DNA of 29,386 nucleotides from a virus: the UHGV virus genome UHGV-0074812; one strand, given 5' to 3'. Positions 3,320 to 29,386 of this stretch are shown here, piece by piece (positions within the stretch are counted from its first letter, which is position 1; every line of letters begins with the position of its first letter). The translations under genes were made by a program, and so were the position numbers. The notes beneath the pieces were generated by a model. That model was not told the DNA's origin, ran no database searches, and saw nothing but the letters and a program-made list of their open reading frames with translations.

Positions 3320-3742
3320 GTGTTTGGTATATTAACGAGAAGCAAGATAAAAAAATTAAGGGCAGAACTCGCCGAAACACAAAAACTGGCTTCACATTTT
3401 TACAAAATGAAATACGACGCTGAAGAGCGTGCATTCGTTGAGTTATGCGATTTATCTATTCGTATGGGAGTAGAGCCAGATGTAGCGGCAAAAACTCAAC
3501 AAGGCATTGATATACTTGCAGATGTTGTTTTAAACAGGCAATATGCGTTTTATCTAAACGAGAAGGCCATTCAGATTTACTCGCAAATCTTCCTCCTGGA
3601 AAAAAGAAGAGGAACTCACGATCGAGAAGAGTGGTTAAATGAAGTTGTTAAAAAATCTGGCTGGGAAGTTGTTTCATCAGAACTACCTCTTATTTGTGCT
3701 GATTTAATCGAAGAGGCAAAAGAGCGCCTATCCGATGGCTAG
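3320..3742 (+). CDS. Hypothetical 140-aa soluble protein in accessory island (GTG start)
   Basis: GGAGG RBS 5 nt upstream of GTG at 3320; preceded by ~300 bp AT-rich non-coding DNA; opposite orientation to flanking late genes; no recognisable family. Confidence 0.65.
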   Translation: MFGILTRSKIKKLRAELAETQKLASHFYKMKYDAEERAFVELCDLSIRMGVEPDVAAKTQQGIDILADVVLNRQYAFYLNEKAIQIYSQIFLLEKRRGTHDREEWLNEVVKKSGWEVVSSELPLICADLIEEAKERLSDG

Positions 3743-22626: not shown

Positions 22627-23063
22627 GCCGCCCTGTCTCCCCATCTCGCTTTCCACTCCAGAGCCAGTCGCGCTTCGTCTGACCACTTAACGCCACGTTC
22701 TGTACCGAATGCCTGTATAAGCTCTAATAGCTCCGCAAATTCGCCTACCCGCATCCTGCTGGTTGACTGGCCTATTACCACAAAGCCATTCCCGGCAAGG
22801 TTAGGAACAACATCCTGCTGCTTTAATGCTGCGGTAAACACACACTTCCAGCTTTCTGCATCCAGCCAGCGACCATGCCATTCAACCTGACGCGAGACGT
22901 CACCTAAGCAGGCCCATAGCTTTCTGTTTTGGTCTAAGCTGCGGTTGCGTTCCTGAATGGTTACTACGATTGGCTTGGTTGGGTCTGGAAGGATTTGCTG
23001 TACTGCGTGAATAGCGTTTTGCTGATGTGCTGGAGATCGAATTTCAAAGGTTAGCTTTTTCAT
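22623..23063 (-). CDS. ninB: NinB (recombination mediator, 146 aa)
   Basis: [50 protein letters not shown]... matches lambda NinB; G-rich RBS upstream of ATG at 23063. Confidence 0.85.
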
Positions 23064-23079
23064 GACTTCCCTCTCCCCC

Positions 23080-23111
23080 AAATAAAAAGGCCTGCGATTA
23101 CCAGCAGGCCT
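23080..23111 (-). terminator. tR2-like intrinsic terminator between helicase gene and nin region
   Basis: Stem aggcctgc / gcaggcct (23088-23111) followed on the minus-strand transcript by UUUUAUUU; position equivalent to lambda tR2. Confidence 0.6.
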
Positions 23112-23136
23112 GTTATTAGCTCAGTGATGTAGATGG

Positions 23137-25530
23137 TCATACGTCAGCCCCTTGCGCATATCGTCTGCCACGCGCAGCAGGTGCATTTGATGCTGTGCAA
23201 ATCAGTCTGGCTTCATCCTGGTCACATGCAACAAAGTGTCCGTTGCAGAACCGCTGGTAAACCGTACCAAGTGAGCCAAAACGGTTTTTCGTCACGATGA
23301 TTTCAGCAAATGGCGCGGCGCTACTGTTCTCGTCATATACCGCTTCCCGATAGAGCATGATGATTGAGTCTGCGTCCTGCTCAATGCTTCCTGAATCACG
23401 CAAATCTGCGTTTGTCGGGCGTTTGTTTGGTCGCTTCTCAACATCGCGCGAAAGCTGACTCAGGGAGATAACAGGCGTTTTCAGGTCTTTCGCCATCGCC
23501 TTAAGGCTTCCTGAGATGTGAGCAATTGCGAGGTCGTTGCGGTCTGCTTTCGGCTTCTCAATCAGGCCAAGATAATCCGCCATGATGAGTGACAGGTTTG
23601 GATTTTCCTGTTTGTGCCGTTCTGCGATTGAGCGTATTTCTTCGACCGATAACCGCGAGGCATCGACTACCCATACATCCAAATCTGCAAGCTGACTCAT
23701 GCCGTTAGCAACACGCGCCCAGCCTTCGTCATCCATCGATGCAGGATTTCGCAGTACGCTAACCGACATCCTCCCGGCGTTGGCAATGCTTCGCTCTGCA
23801 ATCTGCAATGCGCTCATTTCCATTGAGAAAATCAATACCCCGCGCCGGACGTCAGAACCAGGAATAACGCGGCTTGCAACGCCTTCGGCAATCTTCAGCG
23901 CCAGTTCCGTATTGTGCGTAACGATGTAATCCGTTGTCACATAGAGATGGCTAGGATGGCTTACCATGATGCAGAGACACTCTTCTGGCTCAACAACTTC
24001 AACCGATTTGATACCCACACCAAGGTCGCCAAGCCTGTTAATCCCGAGATTTTTGCGTAAACGTGGTGAGTGAATTTGCTCTATCAAAGATGATGGCAAC
24101 TTCATGCTGACCATGTGTGCATCAAGTCCGTCATGCTTCTCTCCTTTGTACGTGTAAACTATTCCCGTCCTGCTGGATTCTTTGGCGGTTCCACCTAAAG
24201 ATCTAACAAGCCTTACTAATCCTTTAGCTAATTTCTGACTGGATGAACTAAAGCGGATGCATCCGGACTTCTCAACCCAGCCATCTGTCTCGAGAAGGCC
24301 AGTTAAAACACCGGTACGTATTTCTTTGCTAGCACTAAAAATTTCTGCTGGGATTTCCTTCTCGGACGCACCTTTCCCGATCATCCCAATGCCACGTAGT
24401 TTGTCCAATAGTGGGTTCTTCTGGCCTTTTTGGTTGCTTATCAAATAATCATTCTCTCCTACCTTAACCAGTCGCAGTGGTGCAATTGCATCACTCATGC
24501 GGCTCAGGACATATTCTTCCGAGTTGGTGAATTTGATGCCTTTTATCAACGAACCGTCACCAAGTAGAGCCCCAATAACCCAACCATCAAGGGGAATATT
24601 TTTACCAAAGTCTCCGGTCAAGGATGGCACTCTTATTCTTCCCTGATAACGTGTTTTTTGTAGCATCCCAGCCAGCGCATCAGTATCAACAACGCGCTTA
24701 CCAGTAAATCTTGATGATGAAATTTCCCATAAGTGGTTGTCGGCACATTTCACGCTACGTCCGTCTTCAAAGGTGACTAAATATGTGAATTTCTTCCCTT
24801 GCGGGAAGACGCCAATTACCTCCGAAGGAAGCCCGTCTATTGACGCGATGCGATCGCCAATTTTGACTTCTCCGTGAGTAGTCCAGGTGCCATCTGCAAG
24901 TAAAATCCCTTCGCTTAGCGCCATTGCTTTCCCCATACCAGGACGAGCAGCGATAATCACCAGGTCTTCCGCGTTCATCCCTCCGGTGATGGCGTCAAGT
25001 TCTTCGATTCCGGTCTTCAGGGTATCTGACTCTTCTCCGTTCCTCAGACGCCTGTCAAGCGTGTCAGTGTAGTCAGTTATGATTTCCCCTAACCGTACAG
25101 GTTTAACCTCGTCACGGGGCTTTCTGATGGCTGAAAGACGTTTTACCAGTTCATCCATCGCCTGACTCGATGCGTCGATGGTTCCGCTCTGAATTGGTTC
25201 ACGCATTTCATCCATGATTTCCAGCACCAGACGGCGGTGATAGTTATCCGCGACCATTCCGGCATATCCCTTCAGGTTTGCGGCGCTCGGGCAGTTTTTG
25301 CTGGTCATCAGGATTGACGTGAAATGCTCCTCTCCGCACGCCTCGGCAACCATCAACGCGTCGATTAGGTTTCTGTTTCGCGCCTGCTTCCGGATAACTT
25401 CGAAGGCTTTCCGGTAGAGCGGAATTGAAAACGCTTCCGGCTCAAGCGTTGCCAGAACGTCACTGGCGGTTGGAGTTAATCCACCAATCAGCAGGCCACC
25501 GATAACGCTCGCTTCGATATCCTGTCTCAT
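23137..25530 (-). CDS. Replicative DnaB-family helicase interrupted by an in-frame intein (797-aa precursor; predicted mature helicase ~458 aa)
   Basis: DnaB N-terminal domain, P-loop ...[10 protein letters not shown] then ~339 aa of intein-like sequence, then [10 protein letters not shown]... and DnaB C-terminal motifs ([33 protein letters not shown]). Confidence 0.85.
23911..24927 (-). mobile_element. Intein with LAGLIDADG homing-endonuclease domain inserted in the helicase P-loop (residues ~202-540); candidate class 3 intein (Ala1, Trp in block B, Cys in block F, Thr-His-Asn at C-terminus, Thr +1)
   Basis: Block A-like [14 protein letters not shown]; block B ..KCADNHLW; two LAGLIDADG motifs ([11 protein letters not shown] and [11 protein letters not shown]); block F ..EECLCIMV..; block G ..YIVTHN followed by Thr; removing the segment restores a contiguous GMGK-T Walker A. 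Confidence 0.7.
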
Positions 25531-26474
25531 GCAATCCCCCTGTCTGCAAACTTCCCTTCCCGAACTCCCGTTAACGAGTCTTCCCTCAGCAGGTAATCAA
25601 AATCAGCCGTCCAGCCCGTGTCGTTGTCTCCGAAGTAAAACGGCTTGGCCTGATGCACAAACGCCCTGACATACGCTCTGAAACCGTCCACATTTGGCGT
25701 TTTCAGTTGCGGGATGATTTTCTTCAGGCGGCGTTTGCGTTTCTCGTTGACCGCAACAGCGTGTGGCAGTCTGTCACCGACTTCGGTGTTGTAGGCGTTC
25801 AGGAAGGATTCGTAGTCGATTCGTTCTGCCTTGCGACGTTCAGGTTTAACCTGCCCATCGCCTCCCCCATTGGGGGGTAGGGGGGTATTATTTATATTCT
25901 TGTTAATACCTTCTTGTTCATGATGTGCGGTTGTTTGTGCGGCTTCATGTGCGCTTTCATGTGTGGCATGTACGCTGAAAGCCGCGCCATTACTGGCTTC
26001 ATCATGTGCGGCATCATGTGCGGTTGTTTGTGCGGCTTCATGTGCGGGTGAATTGTCCATTTTTTGAGCGTATTCATGGTAATTTGTGATGGTGATCACA
26101 CGCCCTTTTTGCTTCTCTCCATCAATGGAAATCATCCCCTCTTTCACAAAAACCTGAAGCATCCGCTCAACCTGATCACGGCTTGCTGGCTTGCCATGCC
26201 TGTCGCATAACTGAAGACCTAAATCAGCTGCTGTCACAACCAGTTGACCGGGTTGCAGATGCCATTCATGACCTTTGAAATTCGCTTTGTATGGCTTTCT
26301 GGCGGCATTCAGGAGAAGGTTTTCCCACAGGGTGCGAAGATAAACATCTTTCGCCCATGACTGTTTCAGAATGCTCCGGTACAACGGAATGTAACCAGTT
26401 TTCTGGTTCTCCATCCTGTTGCTCCTGCGCTCGTGTGCGGCGCTGAAATCGTAGATTTTTGCTGTATTGCTCAT
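25527..26474 (-). CDS. Replication initiator, lambda O-like N-terminal domain (315 aa)
   Basis: [17 protein letters not shown]... parallels lambda O N-terminus (MTNTAKILNFGR...); contains repetitive His/Ala linker encoded by iteron-like DNA repeats; directly upstream of the helicase gene (ATGA overlap). Confidence 0.7.
25918..26047. repeat. Iteron-like direct repeats inside the O-like gene with adjacent AT-rich tract (candidate replication origin)
   Basis: 31-bp perfect direct repeat atgtgcggttgtttgtgcggcttcatgtgcg at 25923-25953 and 26015-26045, plus at least 10 copies of the core (A)TGTGCGG; AT-rich stretch gtattatttatattcttgttaat at about 25885-25910 and G/C palindrome cccccattgggggg at 25864-25878. 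Confidence 0.55.
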
Positions 26475-26476
26475 AA

Positions 26477-26752
26477 CTACCTGCCTTGACGAAAGACCTT
26501 AAGAACATCGTTAAACTGACTTACGGATATGTCTTCTTTGAGAAGCTTTTCCAGAAATGCGTTTGGAATGAACGTATATCCCTCCTCTTTTGGTAGAGAC
26601 GGGAGCAACGCCCTCGCCTCAGCCTTCAGAAACTCAGTTCTGGCAACTTTCACAAAAGAGATTTGAGTTCTTTCATCAATGGAACGAAGGAAGCGCAAAC
26701 GCTTAGCTTCTTTGTGTGTATCAGGTGGATTAAAGCCTTTGTTTCGCATATA
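26477..26752 (-). CDS. Hypothetical ~91-aa protein between cII and the O-like gene
   Basis: Internal start MRNKGFNPPDTHKEAKRLRF... at 26752 with GAGG upstream; the longer 193-aa ORF in the track overlaps cII out of frame and is unlikely. No family recognised. Confidence 0.4.
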   Translation of the reverse strand, partial: YMRNKGFNPPDTHKEAKRLRFLRSIDERTQISFVKVARTEFLKAEARALLPSLPKEEGYTFIPNAFLEKLLKEDISVSQFNDVLKVFRQGR

Positions 26753-26771
26753 ATTACCTCGTTGGATGTTG

Positions 26772-27065
26772 TTAAAATTCCATTTGTATTTGATCAGAAC
26801 GCTCGGTTGCCGCCGGGCGTTTTTTATTGGTGAGAATCGAAGCAACTTGTCGTGCCAATCGAGCCATGTCGTCGTCGACGACACCCCATTCAAGAACAGC
26901 AAGCAGCATTGAGAACTTTGGAATCCAGTCCCTCTTCCACCTGCTGATCTGCGACTTATCAACTCCCACAGCTTCCGCTGTCTTCTCAGTTCCAAGCATT
27001 GCGATTTTGTTAAGCAACGCACTCTCGATTCGTAGAGCCTCGTTGCGTTTGTTTGCACGAACCAT
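26772..27065 (-). CDS. cII: CII transcriptional activator (lambda-type, 97 aa)
   Basis: MVRANKRNEALRIESALLNKIAMLGTEKTAEAVGVDKSQISRWKRDWIPKFSMLLAVLEWGVVDDDMARLARQVA.ILTNKKRPAATERS.QIQMEF is lambda CII nearly residue for residue as I remember it. Confidence 0.9.
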   Translation of the reverse strand: MVRANKRNEALRIESALLNKIAMLGTEKTAEAVGVDKSQISRWKRDWIPKFSMLLAVLEWGVVDDDMARLARQVASILTNKKRPAATERSDQIQMEF

Positions 27066-27124
27066 ATGTAAGTATTTCCTTAACAAATAAGAAGTTATGC
27101 GCATCAACTTATGCGCGTTGTATT

Positions 27125-27167
27125 CCCGCATTTCGGCGGGAATGAGGACCATGACTGTTAAAGAGCA
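27125..27167 (-). promoter_or_regulatory. nutR (boxA tgctctttaa and boxB hairpin cccgc-cgaaat-gcggg on minus-strand transcript)
   Basis: BoxA-like motif plus stem-loop between cro and cII; identical boxB sequence occurs in opposite orientation at nutL (28280-28295). Confidence 0.6.
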
Positions 27168-27173
27168 ATTTGC

Positions 27174-27359
27174 TTATGCCGCTTTGCGGTAAGCGCTTTC
27201 TTGATACTTCAGGGCGCCAGCTGTAACGACTTCCAGTCGATAGGCGTCTTTCTCTGGGATGACTTCCTTCCACTGAGAGACTGCTGCGTCGCTAATGCCT
27301 AACGCTTTAGCTACAGCACGCTGGGTTCCGAAGTGGTCGATAACATCTTTCTTGTACAT
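27174..27359 (-). CDS. cro: Cro repressor (P22-type, 61 aa)
   Basis: MYKKDVIDHFGTQRAVAKALGISDAAVSQWKEVIPEKDAYRLEVVTAGALKYQESAYRKAA matches P22 Cro as I remember it; divergent from c2. Confidence 0.9.
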   Translation of the reverse strand: MYKKDVIDHFGTQRAVAKALGISDAAVSQWKEVIPEKDAYRLEVVTAGALKYQESAYRKAA

Positions 27360-27439
27360 AGACTCGCTCCGAAATTAAAGAACACTTAAATTATCCACTA
27401 AAGGAATCTTAAGTCAAGTTTATTTAAGATGTCTTAACT
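27360..27439. promoter_or_regulatory. OR/PR/PRM region with P22-type operator palindromes
   Basis: TTAAG-containing palindromic sites, e.g. atttaagatgtcttaact (27422-27439), cttaagtcaagtttatttaag, cacttaaattatccactaaag; lies between divergent cro and c2. Confidence 0.65.
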
Positions 27440-28090
27440 ATGAAAACTCAATTGATGGGAGAGCGCATTCGCGCTCGGAGAAAAGAACTCAAGATCAGGC
27501 AGGCCGCACTTGGAAAGATGGTCGGCGTGTCTAATGTTGCCATATCTCAGTGGGAACGCTCTGAGACAGAGCCAAATGGAGAGAATCTTCTCGCCCTGGC
27601 TAATGCGTTGAAGTGTTCCCCTGACTATCTGATGAAAGGAGAGGAAAGTCTTTCAAACATTGCCTATCACAGTAGGCATGATCCAAGAGGGTCATACCCT
27701 CTGATTAGCTGGGTGAGCGCAGGATGCTGGATGGAAGCTGTAGAACCATATCATAAGCGTGCAATAGATAACTGGTACGATACAACCGTAGACTGTTCAG
27801 ACGATTCGTTTTGGTTGGACGTGAAGGGAGACTCAATGACGGCTCCGGCCGGTCTCAGTATCCCTGAAGGAATGATAATACTCGTCGATCCTGAAGTAGA
27901 GCCGCGTAACGGGAAACTGGTAGTTGCAAAGCTCGAAGGAGAAAACGAGGCAACTTTCAAGAAGTTAGTTATTGATGCAGGCAGGAAGTTTCTAAAACCA
28001 CTTAACCCACAATATCCGATGATCGAGATCAACGGGAACTGCAAAATCATCGGCGTAGTTGTCGATGCAAAACTAGCAAACCTTCCATAA
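27440..28090 (+). CDS. c2: C2 repressor (P22 c2 / lambda cI family, 216 aa, HTH plus LexA-like peptidase domain)
   Basis: MKTQLMGERIRARRKELKIRQAALGKMVGVSNVAISQWERSETEPNGENLLAL...DSMTAPAGLSIPEGMIILVDPEVEPRNGKLVVAKLEGENEATFKKL closely parallels P22 C2. Confidence 0.9.
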   Translation: MKTQLMGERIRARRKELKIRQAALGKMVGVSNVAISQWERSETEPNGENLLALANALKCSPDYLMKGEESLSNIAYHSRHDPRGSYPLISWVSAGCWMEAVEPYHKRAIDNWYDTTVDCSDDSFWLDVKGDSMTAPAGLSIPEGMIILVDPEVEPRNGKLVVAKLEGENEATFKKLVIDAGRKFLKPLNPQYPMIEINGNCKIIGVVVDAKLANLP

Positions 28091-28091
28091 G

Positions 28092-28112
28092 GGGGCATTC
28101 GCCCCTTTTTTT
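28092..28112 (+). terminator. Intrinsic terminator after c2 (ggggc-attc-gcccc plus T7)
   Basis: Perfect GC stem 28092-28105 followed by ttttttt. Confidence 0.7.
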
Positions 28113-28129
28113 ATTTCCTTTAAAAATCA

Positions 28130-28215
28130 AAGCCAAACTTAAGTTACGAAAGAAAATTTAAGTTTTCTTCAAAAATACTCTTGACCATTAATTAAAGAGA
28201 TCTTAAATTTAAGCC
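28130..28215 (+). promoter_or_regulatory. OL/PL region (operator palindromes and candidate PL -35 TTGACC / -10 TAAATT)
   Basis: Palindromes aacttaagtt (28136-28145) and cttaaatttaag (28202-28213); TTGACC at 28181-28186 with 17-nt spacer to TAAATT at 28204-28209. Confidence 0.5.
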
Positions 28216-28254
28216 ATCAGCAGGACGCTGGTAGCCAAACGGAACAGATTGGCA

Positions 28255-28295
28255 GGCTCTTTAACATTGATGGAATTGTCCCGCCGAAATGCGGG
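28255..28295 (+). promoter_or_regulatory. nutL (boxA ggctctttaa, boxB hairpin cccgc-cgaaat-gcggg)
   Basis: Same boxB 16-mer as at nutR, in the orientation of PL transcription, upstream of N-like gene. Confidence 0.6.
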
Positions 28296-28438
28296 AACCA
28301 AAGAGTAGTTGGCTTTGGGATTGGATGAATGCGCAGGCTGATGCGCGCAGGAGAGCTTCGGGAGAACAAGGTGCCTGTAAATAAGCCGGAGTTCAGCACC
28401 GGCCATCCAATCGCCAAAGTCAATCATCGGAGGTCAAC

Positions 28439-28744
28439 ATGGCAGTAGTCATTACATATCTGGCTGACGATAACGCCAGAAATCGCCGCAGAGCACGCAG
28501 ACAGGCTCAACGTGAACAGGCAATGCAAGAGCAGCGACTGGCGCGAAAAATTGCGCTAAAGCTCTCTGGTTGCGTCAGAGCAGATAAAGCAGCATCACTC
28601 GGAAGCCTTCGCTGCAAGAAGGCAGAAGAAGTCGAGCGTAAACAGAACCGTATTTACTACCGCAAGCCACGCAGTGAAATGGGTGTGACTTGCTCAGGCC
28701 GCCAGAAACAACGCGGAAAATCAATTCCAGCTTATTACGATTGA
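28439..28744 (+). CDS. N: N-like transcription antiterminator (101 aa, N-terminal arginine-rich motif)
   Basis: N-terminal ARM DNARNRRRARRQAQREQ; GGAGG RBS; first gene downstream of PL/nutL. Confidence 0.65.
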   Translation: MAVVITYLADDNARNRRRARRQAQREQAMQEQRLARKIALKLSGCVRADKAASLGSLRCKKAEEVERKQNRIYYRKPRSEMGVTCSGRQKQRGKSIPAYYD

Positions 28745-28752
28745 GGTGAGCC

Positions 28753-28890
28753 ATGCTCAAGAAAGTCAAACGCCGACTTTACAAAGAAGGTAGATATTCA
28801 TGCCATTTGCCAAAATGCGACACAGCAAAATGGAGTGTCGATGATTGGTGTAACTGGATAGATAGATACGGAACTTGGTGGGATAAATAA
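28753..28890 (+). CDS. Hypothetical 45-aa Cys/Trp-rich protein (not in ORF track, under 60 aa)
   Basis: Manual translation MLKKVKRRLYKEGRYSCHLPKCDTAKWSVDDWCNWIDRYGTWWDK; RBS ttGAGGTGAGcc before ATG, the same motif as the next gene. Confidence 0.4.
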   Translation: MLKKVKRRLYKEGRYSCHLPKCDTAKWSVDDWCNWIDRYGTWWDK

Positions 28891-28944
28891 CAGGTAACTT
28901 AAGCGGATTTATTTTCGCAGCAAACCACTTATTTGAGGTGAGAT

Positions 28945-29208
28945 ATGGACGAGAAAATTAAATCATTGAAGCCAGGAATTGTTATCAGAGACATAAGTGG
29001 TTATTACGATACAGAGACATATGATATTTTATATGTGCATGCAGATGGAAAATGTCAGTATTCGAACGACATTTTTAATAATAAAGGCGATGCCGAAATT
29101 GCTGCCACCACAGTTAATAAAGAGCTCGTAGCTAACGAGTCGTGGGATTATTTTATGCCATCATCCACTTCTATGAACTGGAAAGTGGTTTTGTACATTC
29201 CATCATAA
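28945..29208 (+). CDS. Hypothetical 87-aa protein in early-left operon
   Basis: ORF with RBS tttGAGGTGAGat before ATG; AT-rich codon usage; no family recognised. Confidence 0.55.
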   Translation: MDEKIKSLKPGIVIRDISGYYDTETYDILYVHADGKCQYSNDIFNNKGDAEIAATTVNKELVANESWDYFMPSSTSMNWKVVLYIPS

Positions 29209-29249
29209 TTGTAGCTGCCGTTCAAAAATGAAAGTAAATCTAACATCAC

Positions 29250-29277
29250 AGGCCGCATAGTCGGCCTTCTTTTGGCA
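29250..29277 (+). terminator. Intrinsic terminator in early-left operon (aggccg-catagt-cggcct plus tcttttgg)
   Basis: 6-bp stem followed by T-rich tract, directly downstream of the 87-aa ORF. Confidence 0.6.
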
Positions 29278-29386
29278 TAAACAACAGAATAAACACTGCA
29301 CTGTGTATTCATTCCAACGAGTGAATACACTGAGCAATGTCGCTCGTAACTAAACAGGAGCCGACTTGTTCTGATTATTGGAAATC

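Follow-up and report, generated by a model that had tools for sequence, protein, structure and literature searches.

The 29,386-nucleotide stretch of viral DNA analysed here (UHGV-0074812, referred to as the window) very probably carries at positions 25864-26047 the replication origin of a P22-like (HK620/CUS-3-like) E. coli phage, located within the part of the initiator gene that encodes the linker between two protein domains. This assignment draws on sequence comparison and on analogy with the origins of phages lambda and P22. The features of the region are compiled in Table 1. A likely origin of replication had been proposed for this segment in the initial annotation, and homology, the order of the elements, and the constraint seen at synonymous sites as well as in a population sample agree in pointing to the same reading. 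The kind of origin is well known; the iteron specificity within it seems to be new and is apparently undescribed. Our literature search for the repeat strings returned only chance primer matches in unrelated papers, and for the origins of CUS-3 or Stx phages it found only work on lambda-type O.

Table 1. Features of the candidate origin and the neighbouring genes in the window
Feature	Position	Strand	Remarks
O-like replication initiator gene	25527..26474	-	ORF, 315 aa; candidate origin in the inter-domain linker
N-terminal winged-helix domain (aa 21-141), coding region	26052..26414	-	presumed iteron-binding domain
Iteron cluster 1, four 12-bp units	26000..26047	-	gene strand CCGCACATGAAG CCGCACAAACAA CCGCACATGATG CCGCACATGATG
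Central spacer, 33 bp, fixed length	25967..25999	-	AAGCCAGTAATGGCGCGGCTTTCAGCGTACATG; contains the motif CCAGYAATGRCGCGGCT
Iteron cluster 2, four 12-bp units	25919..25966	-	gene strand CCACACATGAAA GCGCACATGAAG CCGCACAAACAA CCGCACATCATG
A-rich tract (gene strand), presumed DNA-unwinding element	25886..25918	-	AACAAGAAGGTATTAACAAGAATATAAATAATA
G/C element ("palindrome")	25864..25885	-	CCCCCCTACCCCCCAATGGGGG; junction with the P22-type C-terminal module
C-terminal domain, P22 gp18 type	25530..25885	-	presumed helicase-recruiting domain, from about aa 197
DnaB-type replicative helicase gene (P22 gp12 type)	23137..25530	-	directly downstream of the O-like gene

Gene context and anatomy of the repeat array

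The whole window represents an HK620/CUS-3-like (P22-like) E. coli phage or prophage. Its gene order, cI (divergent, encoding a cI-type repressor), cro, cII, the O-like gene, and the DnaB-type helicase gene, is that of a lambdoid early-right operon. The O-like initiator matched the Pfam family Phage_rep_O (PF04492) over aa 20-132 with an E-value of 3.4e-15 and 56.8 bits against a cut-off of 28.7, and it is 98.7% identical to the gene annotated as O in CUS-3. Genes with 98-99% identity were found in CUS-3, JEP4, Gally, HF4s, and about 50 Stx2a-converting phages. The CUS-3 record does not annotate an origin at the O gene, and the same holds for all records examined. The predicted structure of the N-terminal domain has a winged-helix fold in a model of moderate confidence (mean pLDDT 67, core 73-87); the homologous proteins retrieved for the initiator were mostly partial and were used solely to add depth to the alignment behind this model. 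A sequence search of the PDB gave no matches to the initiator, nor was it assigned to an NCBIfam family. Its C-terminal domain shares 53% amino acid identity with the C-terminus of P22 gp18, and at the DNA level positions 25527-25901 are 95-96% identical to gene 18 of ST104, mEp213, HK446, and others. The helicase gene is interrupted by a 339-aa intein (23911-24927; boundaries GMGK|A...THN|T) and has Pfam matches to DnaB, DnaB_C, LAGLIDADG, and Hint. Its matches to the NCBIfam models DnaB and phage_DnaB scored under the curated cut-offs because of the intein insert. At the gathering threshold, Rfam gave no match in 23000-29386.

The boxes lie at gene nucleotides 428-556, between the N-terminal domain (aa 21-141) and the C-terminal domain (about aa 197 onward). 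Eight boxes with the core CCGCACA on the gene strand follow each other at 12-bp spacing in a 4+4 arrangement, and both TRF and a repeat search gave the period of 12. The gene-strand consensus of the iterons is (C/G)CGCACAT(A/G)A. The boxes have no dyad symmetry and are head-to-tail direct repeats. The cores of cluster 1 are located at 26041-47, 26029-35, 26017-23, and 26005-11, and the first two cores of cluster 2 have one mismatch each; the variant CCACACA of box 5 also occurs in 7 of 74 close relatives. A perfect 31-bp direct repeat had been reported for this region, and we found both copies of ATGTGCGGTTGTTTGTGCGGCTTCATGTGCG to be exact, at 25923-25953 and 26016-26046, because boxes 1-3 of cluster 1 equal boxes 2-4 of cluster 2. 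The core, reported to recur at least ten times, had been overcounted: exact TGTGCGG occurs six times and ATGTGCGG four times. The eight boxes include the in-register one-mismatch variants TGTGCGC and TGTGTGG, and one further variant, TGTACGC, is off register. The repeats encode a linker rich in His and Ala as had been described, with 14 Ala and 8 His in 50 residues. Alternative-frame ORFs over the repeats (25892-26077 on the minus strand and 25914-26051 on the plus strand) were taken as by-products of the stop-free repeats.

It is the clustering and phasing of CCGCACA that stand out, not its overall count. The total in the window is ordinary (seven against 4.2 expected, with seven reached by 17 of 100 shuffles), and the sole copy outside the array lies at 26434-26440. 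Six cores share one strand and fall within 124 bp at distances that are all multiples of 12 bp, for which a Poisson estimate gives a probability of about 1e-9 when all start positions are allowed for. We also searched for sites of host factors. Between 25500 and 26500, there was neither an exact DnaA box (TTWTNCACA) nor an IHF site (WATCAANNNNTTR); allowing one mismatch brought up DnaA-like sites only outside the array and still no IHF site. The origin has no GATC cluster.

Read along the gene, the A-rich tract lies directly 3' of the iterons, and its position and purine strand bias are as in the lambda and P22 origins. An AT-rich stretch had been noted next to the repeats; the richest 40-bp window, starting at 25885, contains 77.5% A+T, a content matched by only 0.35% of the 40-bp windows in the 29 kb. 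Regarding the G/C palindrome that had also been noted, the dyad CCCCC-ATT-GGGGGG is present at 25864-25877, with another G6 run reaching to 25885, but as a single-strand hairpin it performed no better than shuffled sequence (z = -0.85 and -1.5). Among the C-terminal domain and iteron types with which the G/C element occurs, insertions and deletions within it shift the reading frame. The folding of the spacer was unremarkable (z=+0.38).

Constraint on the array in close and diverged relatives

To compare the array across deeper divergence, we used a scan of one genome per species, which gave 28 prophage loci from genera that included Enterobacter, Citrobacter, Brenneria, Sodalis, Yersinia, and Pantoea; amino acid identity in the domain was 67-83%. 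The codon alignment of 29 sequences drew on the prophage loci, the window, and the Klebsiella and Yersinia phages (67-86% amino acid identity in the domain). The layout was the same in 29/29 loci, namely 3+3 or 4+4 boxes with a 12-bp step. Moreover, the step between the two boxes that flank the spacer was 45 bp in all 29 loci, and in all of them the conserved sequence CATCATGAACAAGAAGGTAATAACAA..AATA.AAA follows the array. The A-rich tract was also kept in all 29, whichever C-terminal domain was present. The initial annotation had named absence of the repeats from functional relatives as evidence against an origin, which did not come true: the array was found in every relative examined, including the isolated phages CUS-3, JEP4, Gally, HF4s, Klebsiella phage 2b LV-2017, and Yersinia phage vB_YenM_210.17.

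Normalised synonymous-codon entropy was 0.19 in the origin segment versus 0.62 in the N-terminal domain (Mann-Whitney p=1.9e-8). The His codons of the origin segment were CAT in 189 of 195 cases and CAC in the other 6, and the Ala codons in the cores were either GCA only or GCG only within one phage. Core positions 1-7 were near-invariant across 198 boxes (80 + 118), whereas codons and residues between the boxes differed freely. The core even outlasts a change of the encoded residue, as CCGCACTT encodes Ala-Leu in the Yersinia phage. These patterns indicate that the array DNA itself, beyond the peptide, is under purifying selection at the cores and the A-rich tract.

More distant relatives extend the comparison. 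Salmonella phage S.Inf 5-2 (46% amino acid identity) has CACCCGATGAAC-type repeats and Enterobacter phage ENT1 (47%) has GTCGAA/GACGAG-type repeats, both with a period of 12 bp, and the phage-L-type initiator gene (22%) has TGTCCAACGGA repeats with a period of 11 bp. All three kept two sets (3+3) of direct repeats, the spacer motif, and the A-rich tract, with wholly different cores and linker peptides. Therefore, the DNA architecture is conserved rather than the His/Ala peptide. The spacer motif CCAGYAATGRCGCGGCT is thus shared with relatives whose iterons are unrelated, and it is polymorphic among close relatives.

For the population level, a scan of viral contigs gave only loci with 99-100% identical N-terminal domains, which were of no use for deep comparison and made up a sample of 74 close relatives with 47 origin haplotypes. 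Nucleotide diversity (pi) was 0.008 in the box cores, 0.047 between the boxes, and 0.058 in the spacer, and the cores varied less than the inter-box plus spacer positions (Fisher p=5e-4). None of 34 sites was variable in the A-rich tract, a count that adds the final base of box 8 to the 33 positions of the tract itself. The free part of the G/C element likewise had no variable sites, in a sample for which eight bases of this element served as the extraction anchor and from which a length filter left out two loci with a C run one base shorter. Gene conversion between the clusters was visible in two loci (L014 and L019), in the latter of which cluster 2 equals cluster 1, and could help to homogenise the cores. 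We also considered concerted evolution as the cause of core homogeneity and set it aside as weak, with a same-register identity at variable positions of 0.59 within versus 0.49 between phages.

These data bear on whether the repeats could be a mere low-complexity His/Ala linker that arose by slippage, the DNA periodicity being a functionless by-product. The array is in frame (12 bp being four codons) and encodes AH-x-x repeats between two folded domains, and hypervariability of the spacer and of the positions between boxes is what a relaxed linker would show. However, this explanation accounts neither for the frozen synonymous sites of the cores nor for cores that persist where the residue changes. 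The linkers of the relatives (PDEPCDKPSD, VEGSDEPPVE, and CPTDVQR) differ, yet the 3+3 layout of the DNA stays. Unlike slippage-prone tracts, the array showed no change in box number among the 74 close relatives. We consider a slippage linker highly improbable and favor a set of DNA sites that belong to an origin.

Exchangeable modules and comparison with known origins

The DNA matches of the initiator gene split at about 25891-25901, the 3' end of the A-rich tract as read along the gene. The 3' third matched P22-type gene 18 (ST104, mEp213, HK446), the 5' part of which is unrelated and contains no CCGCACA boxes. The 5' two-thirds including the repeats showed a 75-80% match to the Klebsiella and Yersinia phages. 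Klebsiella phage 2b LV-2017 and Yersinia phage vB_YenM_210.17 have a C-terminus of the lambda O type, and their downstream gene is annotated as replication protein or P. The split matches thus define one exchangeable module that comprises the N-terminal domain, repeats, and A-rich tract and a second one made up of the C-terminal domain and its helicase or loader partner. The split follows the classical two-domain logic of lambdoid initiators (PMC2629481; PMC8022706). The N-terminal 162 residues of lambda gpO bind the origin (PMC2629481), and lambda, P22, and L each have their own distinct iterons in the O/18 gene (PMC8022706).

The mosaic joint between the two modules at this place could also mean that module swapping is what the spacer motif, the A-rich tract, and the G/C element mainly serve, as "boundary sequences" rather than parts of an origin. 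The G/C element accompanies three types of C-terminal domain and several iteron types, and the CUS-3 record has "boundary sequence" features elsewhere in the same region. Such a role would leave the iteron cores, the synonymous-site constraint, and the fixed architecture unexplained, and the P22 record places its equivalent of the G/C element, ACCCCCTTACCCCCTAAAGGGGG, inside the rep_origin feature. Moreover, a boundary role is compatible with origin function and is not its alternative. We regard it as very unlikely that swapping is the chief role of these elements, and retain them as origin parts.

The arrangement had been likened to that of lambda, with the origin inside O but with a different iteron sequence. 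The candidate origin shares with the lambda origin its location in the linker, the PF04492 N-terminal domain, and a two-domain modular initiator. The order of iterons, A-rich tract (purine-rich on the gene strand), and dyad is also that of the lambda and P22 records. The repeats differ from the iterons of lambda and P22, as had been stated. The lambda record has four iterons of the ATCCCTCAAAACGAGGGA type inside O, which are about 18 bp long, palindromic, bound by O dimers, and spaced 20-24 bp, whereas in the window 12-bp direct repeats run head to tail, eight in all and in two sets of four, and there are no lambda-type iterons. The N-terminal domain is remote from lambda O, with which BLASTP gave the initiator only a marginal alignment (32% over 69 aa, E=0.004). 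The C-terminal domain is of the P22 gp18 type instead, and its partner is a phage DnaB-type helicase, not a P loader with host DnaB. The likeness to lambda stands for an origin inside the initiator gene, but the short direct repeats in two sets are closer to gene 18 of phage L.

P22 has its rep_origin feature at 32840-32984 of BK000583, in a gene 18 / gene 12 replicon, with four units of about 20 bp containing ATCGGTAAAA, an A-rich tract, and then the G/C element. The gp18-type C-terminal domain, the DnaB-type helicase downstream, and a G/C element (CCCCC..TA..CCCCC..GGGGG) after the A-rich tract are common to both. The N-terminal domains, in contrast, are unrelated at the BLAST level, and the window is without ATCGGTAAAA units.

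The closest architecture is that of phage L, where six imprecise 11-bp repeats, TGTCCAACGGA, in gene 18 have already been proposed as the origin (PMC8022706). Two equal head-to-tail sets, a central spacer with CCAGTAATG(A/G)CGCGGCT, and then AACAATAATATAAATAAT are common to phage L and the window, and both layout and spacer motif recur in the L-type locus L127. The two initiators align collinearly from end to end at 22% identity (E=6e-10). They differ in the repeats (TGTCCAACGGA versus CCGCACAT.. in the window), in the period (11 versus 12 bp), and in the number of boxes (3+3 versus 4+4). As in the window, the origin function of the phage L repeats is inferred.

Iteron plasmids are similar in having direct repeats that all face one way, a winged-helix initiator, and an adjoining AT-rich unwinding element (PMC4081077, PMC10602881). 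By comparison, the repeats in the window are 12 bp and not about 17-22 bp, the origin lies within the initiator coding sequence, and there is no DnaA box. No sequence match of the initiator to plasmid Rep families was found, only the match to PF04492.

Proposed mode of action and candidate specificity switch

Following lambda O and P22 gp18, we propose that the N-terminal winged-helix domain would bind the eight 12-bp iterons, arranged 4+4 around the fixed 33-bp spacer, and that the nucleoprotein complex would destabilise the adjoining A-rich tract at 25886-25918. The P22-gp18-type C-terminal domain would then bring in the phage DnaB-type helicase encoded immediately downstream, which would need intein splicing for its activity. 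We infer iteron binding, unwinding of the A-rich tract, and helicase recruitment by analogy with lambda and P22 (PMC7466680; PMC8022706). Since the boxes are direct repeats and not palindromes, the stoichiometry and binding mode of lambda are not transferable. The asymmetric direct repeats at 12 bp make one monomer per box likelier than one dimer per palindrome as in lambda, and such a monomer-per-box mode, as in plasmid Rep proteins, is speculative.

In iteron plasmids, the same sites are used for initiation and for negative control. The boxes might similarly bind the initiator mainly for control, that is, autoregulation, handcuffing, copy number, or incompatibility, while opening and helicase loading take place elsewhere. 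Ectopic ori-lambda iterons inhibit lambda replication (PMC3349717), and the equal number of boxes per cluster (3+3 or 4+4 in 29/29 loci) would suit the pairing of sets. Against a mainly regulatory role, the array abuts an invariant and strongly A-rich tract as in the lambda and P22 origins, and the N-terminal domain, the boxes, and the A-rich tract are exchanged as one unit. Furthermore, TRF detected no second repeat array in the last 12 kb, and only one CCGCACA lies outside the array. A mainly regulatory function is therefore very unlikely in our estimate, and we prefer boxes that serve initiation at the array itself.

Among the diverged loci, the fifth base of the core is A (CCGCACA) in 12 and G (CCGCGCA, with the variant CCGAGCA tolerated) in 17. 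This A/G change is synonymous (GCA/GCG) in the boxes encoding Ala and extends to essentially every box of a phage, with single-box exceptions in Yen210 and L099. The split coincides perfectly with residues 82 (A versus S/T), 100 (D versus H), and 118 of the initiator. The moderate-confidence model places residue 82 at the start of helix 2, residue 100 at the start of the recognition helix, and residue 118 in the wing, which are the usual contact positions of a winged helix. The association of residues and base fits base-specific contacts in this model, and a combination of Asp100/Ala82 with core A may switch to His100/Ser-Thr82 with core G. The association could also be plain physical linkage because the co-varying residues lie in the array-proximal half of the domain. 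In the recombinant loci L100 and L104, the array-proximal half-domain and the array were kept together.

More tentatively, and with considerable doubt, the loci could represent a distinct origin architecture widespread in Enterobacterales prophages, with equal sets of 11-12-bp repeats, a fixed spacer bearing the motif, an invariant A-rich tract, and a specificity that is re-tuned by few changes. If this were true, the rule of equal sets together with the conserved spacer motif would suggest that a host factor or a mode of binding is involved that differs from the lambda O-some.

Conceptually, our results add little to the long-established rule that each lambdoid O-type initiator recognises its own iterons within its gene. 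Only three points go beyond the textbook: the fixed layout in equal sets, the deep conservation of the spacer motif, and the candidate one-residue/one-base switch. The replicon is common, occurring in CUS-3-/HK620-like E. coli phages and in about 50 sequenced O157 Stx2a-converting phages, with diverged forms in phages of Klebsiella and Yersinia and among the prophages of many Enterobacterales. A known origin and specificity determinant could be used for building mini-replicons, for predicting replication incompatibility or cross-activation of co-resident prophages, and for reading the replication of Stx phages, which drives toxin gene dosage. If the link between residues and base is causal, it would offer a natural and easily engineered system for the co-evolution of an initiator and its gene-embedded origin.

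Polymorphism of the putative origin linker

The initiator linker that holds the putative origin was compared in a population sample of 74 close loci from IMG/VR (L006-L085), using the segment that corresponds to window positions 25864-26065. With 47 haplotypes in 74 loci that are 99-100% identical across the N-terminal domain, the linker proved to be a polymorphism hot spot. Its nucleotide diversity (pi) was 0.0225 overall, as opposed to 0.0103 in the adjoining domain. Some haplotypes show signs that 12-bp boxes were shuffled, or that one set of four was converted by the other: set 2 is identical to set 1 in L019, and one box is duplicated in L014.

Database proteins of the initiator family are mostly annotated as partial (146-211 aa; protein matches P0001-P0071). 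These partial proteins stop within or shortly past the repeat array, an indication that assemblies from short reads frequently break at this array or mosaic joint.

Features in and around the initiator gene
Feature	Window position	Strand	Location	Also in
Intein (339 aa) with LAGLIDADG homing endonuclease	23911-24927	minus	inside DnaB-type helicase gene 23137-25530	
G/C element, ACCCCCC(T)TACCCCCC-N1-3-GGGGG	25864-25885		after the A-rich tract	P22 (L116, 964-985); Enterobacter phage ENT1 (L114); L109; L005
Spacer motif CCAGYAATGRCGCGGCT	within 25967-25999		central spacer separating the two iteron sets	L005; ENT1 (L114); phage-L type (L127, within 3478-3510)
Ninth exact CCGCACA	26434-26440	minus	codons 12-14 of the initiator gene	
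Gap of ~300 bp	26475-26771		between cII and the initiator gene	

Neighboring interval and helicase intein

The gap between cII and the initiator gene is the same in CUS-3 as in the window. In lambda and P22, this interval contains the promoter and terminator of the oop RNA, and in P22 also orf48. A search of the window interval against Rfam at the gathering threshold gave no match.

The intein is inserted into the Walker-A loop of the helicase (GMGK|T). Its first residue is Ala instead of Cys or Ser, and the C-terminal junction reads THN|T. Unlike the window helicase, those of CUS-3 and the Salmonella phage S.Inf 5-2 (458 aa) carry no intein. Most of the helicase gene is covered by 51 phage records. 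O157 Stx2a phages account for at least 48 of these, and the best 12 of the 51 match the gene over its full length, intein included.

Motifs outside the iteron boxes

On the same strand as the array, the ninth copy of the core lies about 390 bp upstream of it. CUS-3 has this copy too. It could be either a chance occurrence or an outlying initiator site.

The spacer motif is common to relatives with very different iterons and N-terminal domains, down to 22% identity in the phage-L type, and it varies among close relatives despite its presence in remote ones. The length of the central spacer is constant in all 29 diverged loci. Comparison of the motif with the DnaA and IHF consensus sequences revealed no match.

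The G/C element occurs with three types of C-terminal domain and several iteron types, and is missing where the C-terminal domain is of the lambda-O type. Small indels inside the element shift its reading frame, giving PLPPNGG, PLTPQGE or PLNPPMG. It resembles a DNA-level element or mosaic boundary sequence more than it does a conserved peptide.
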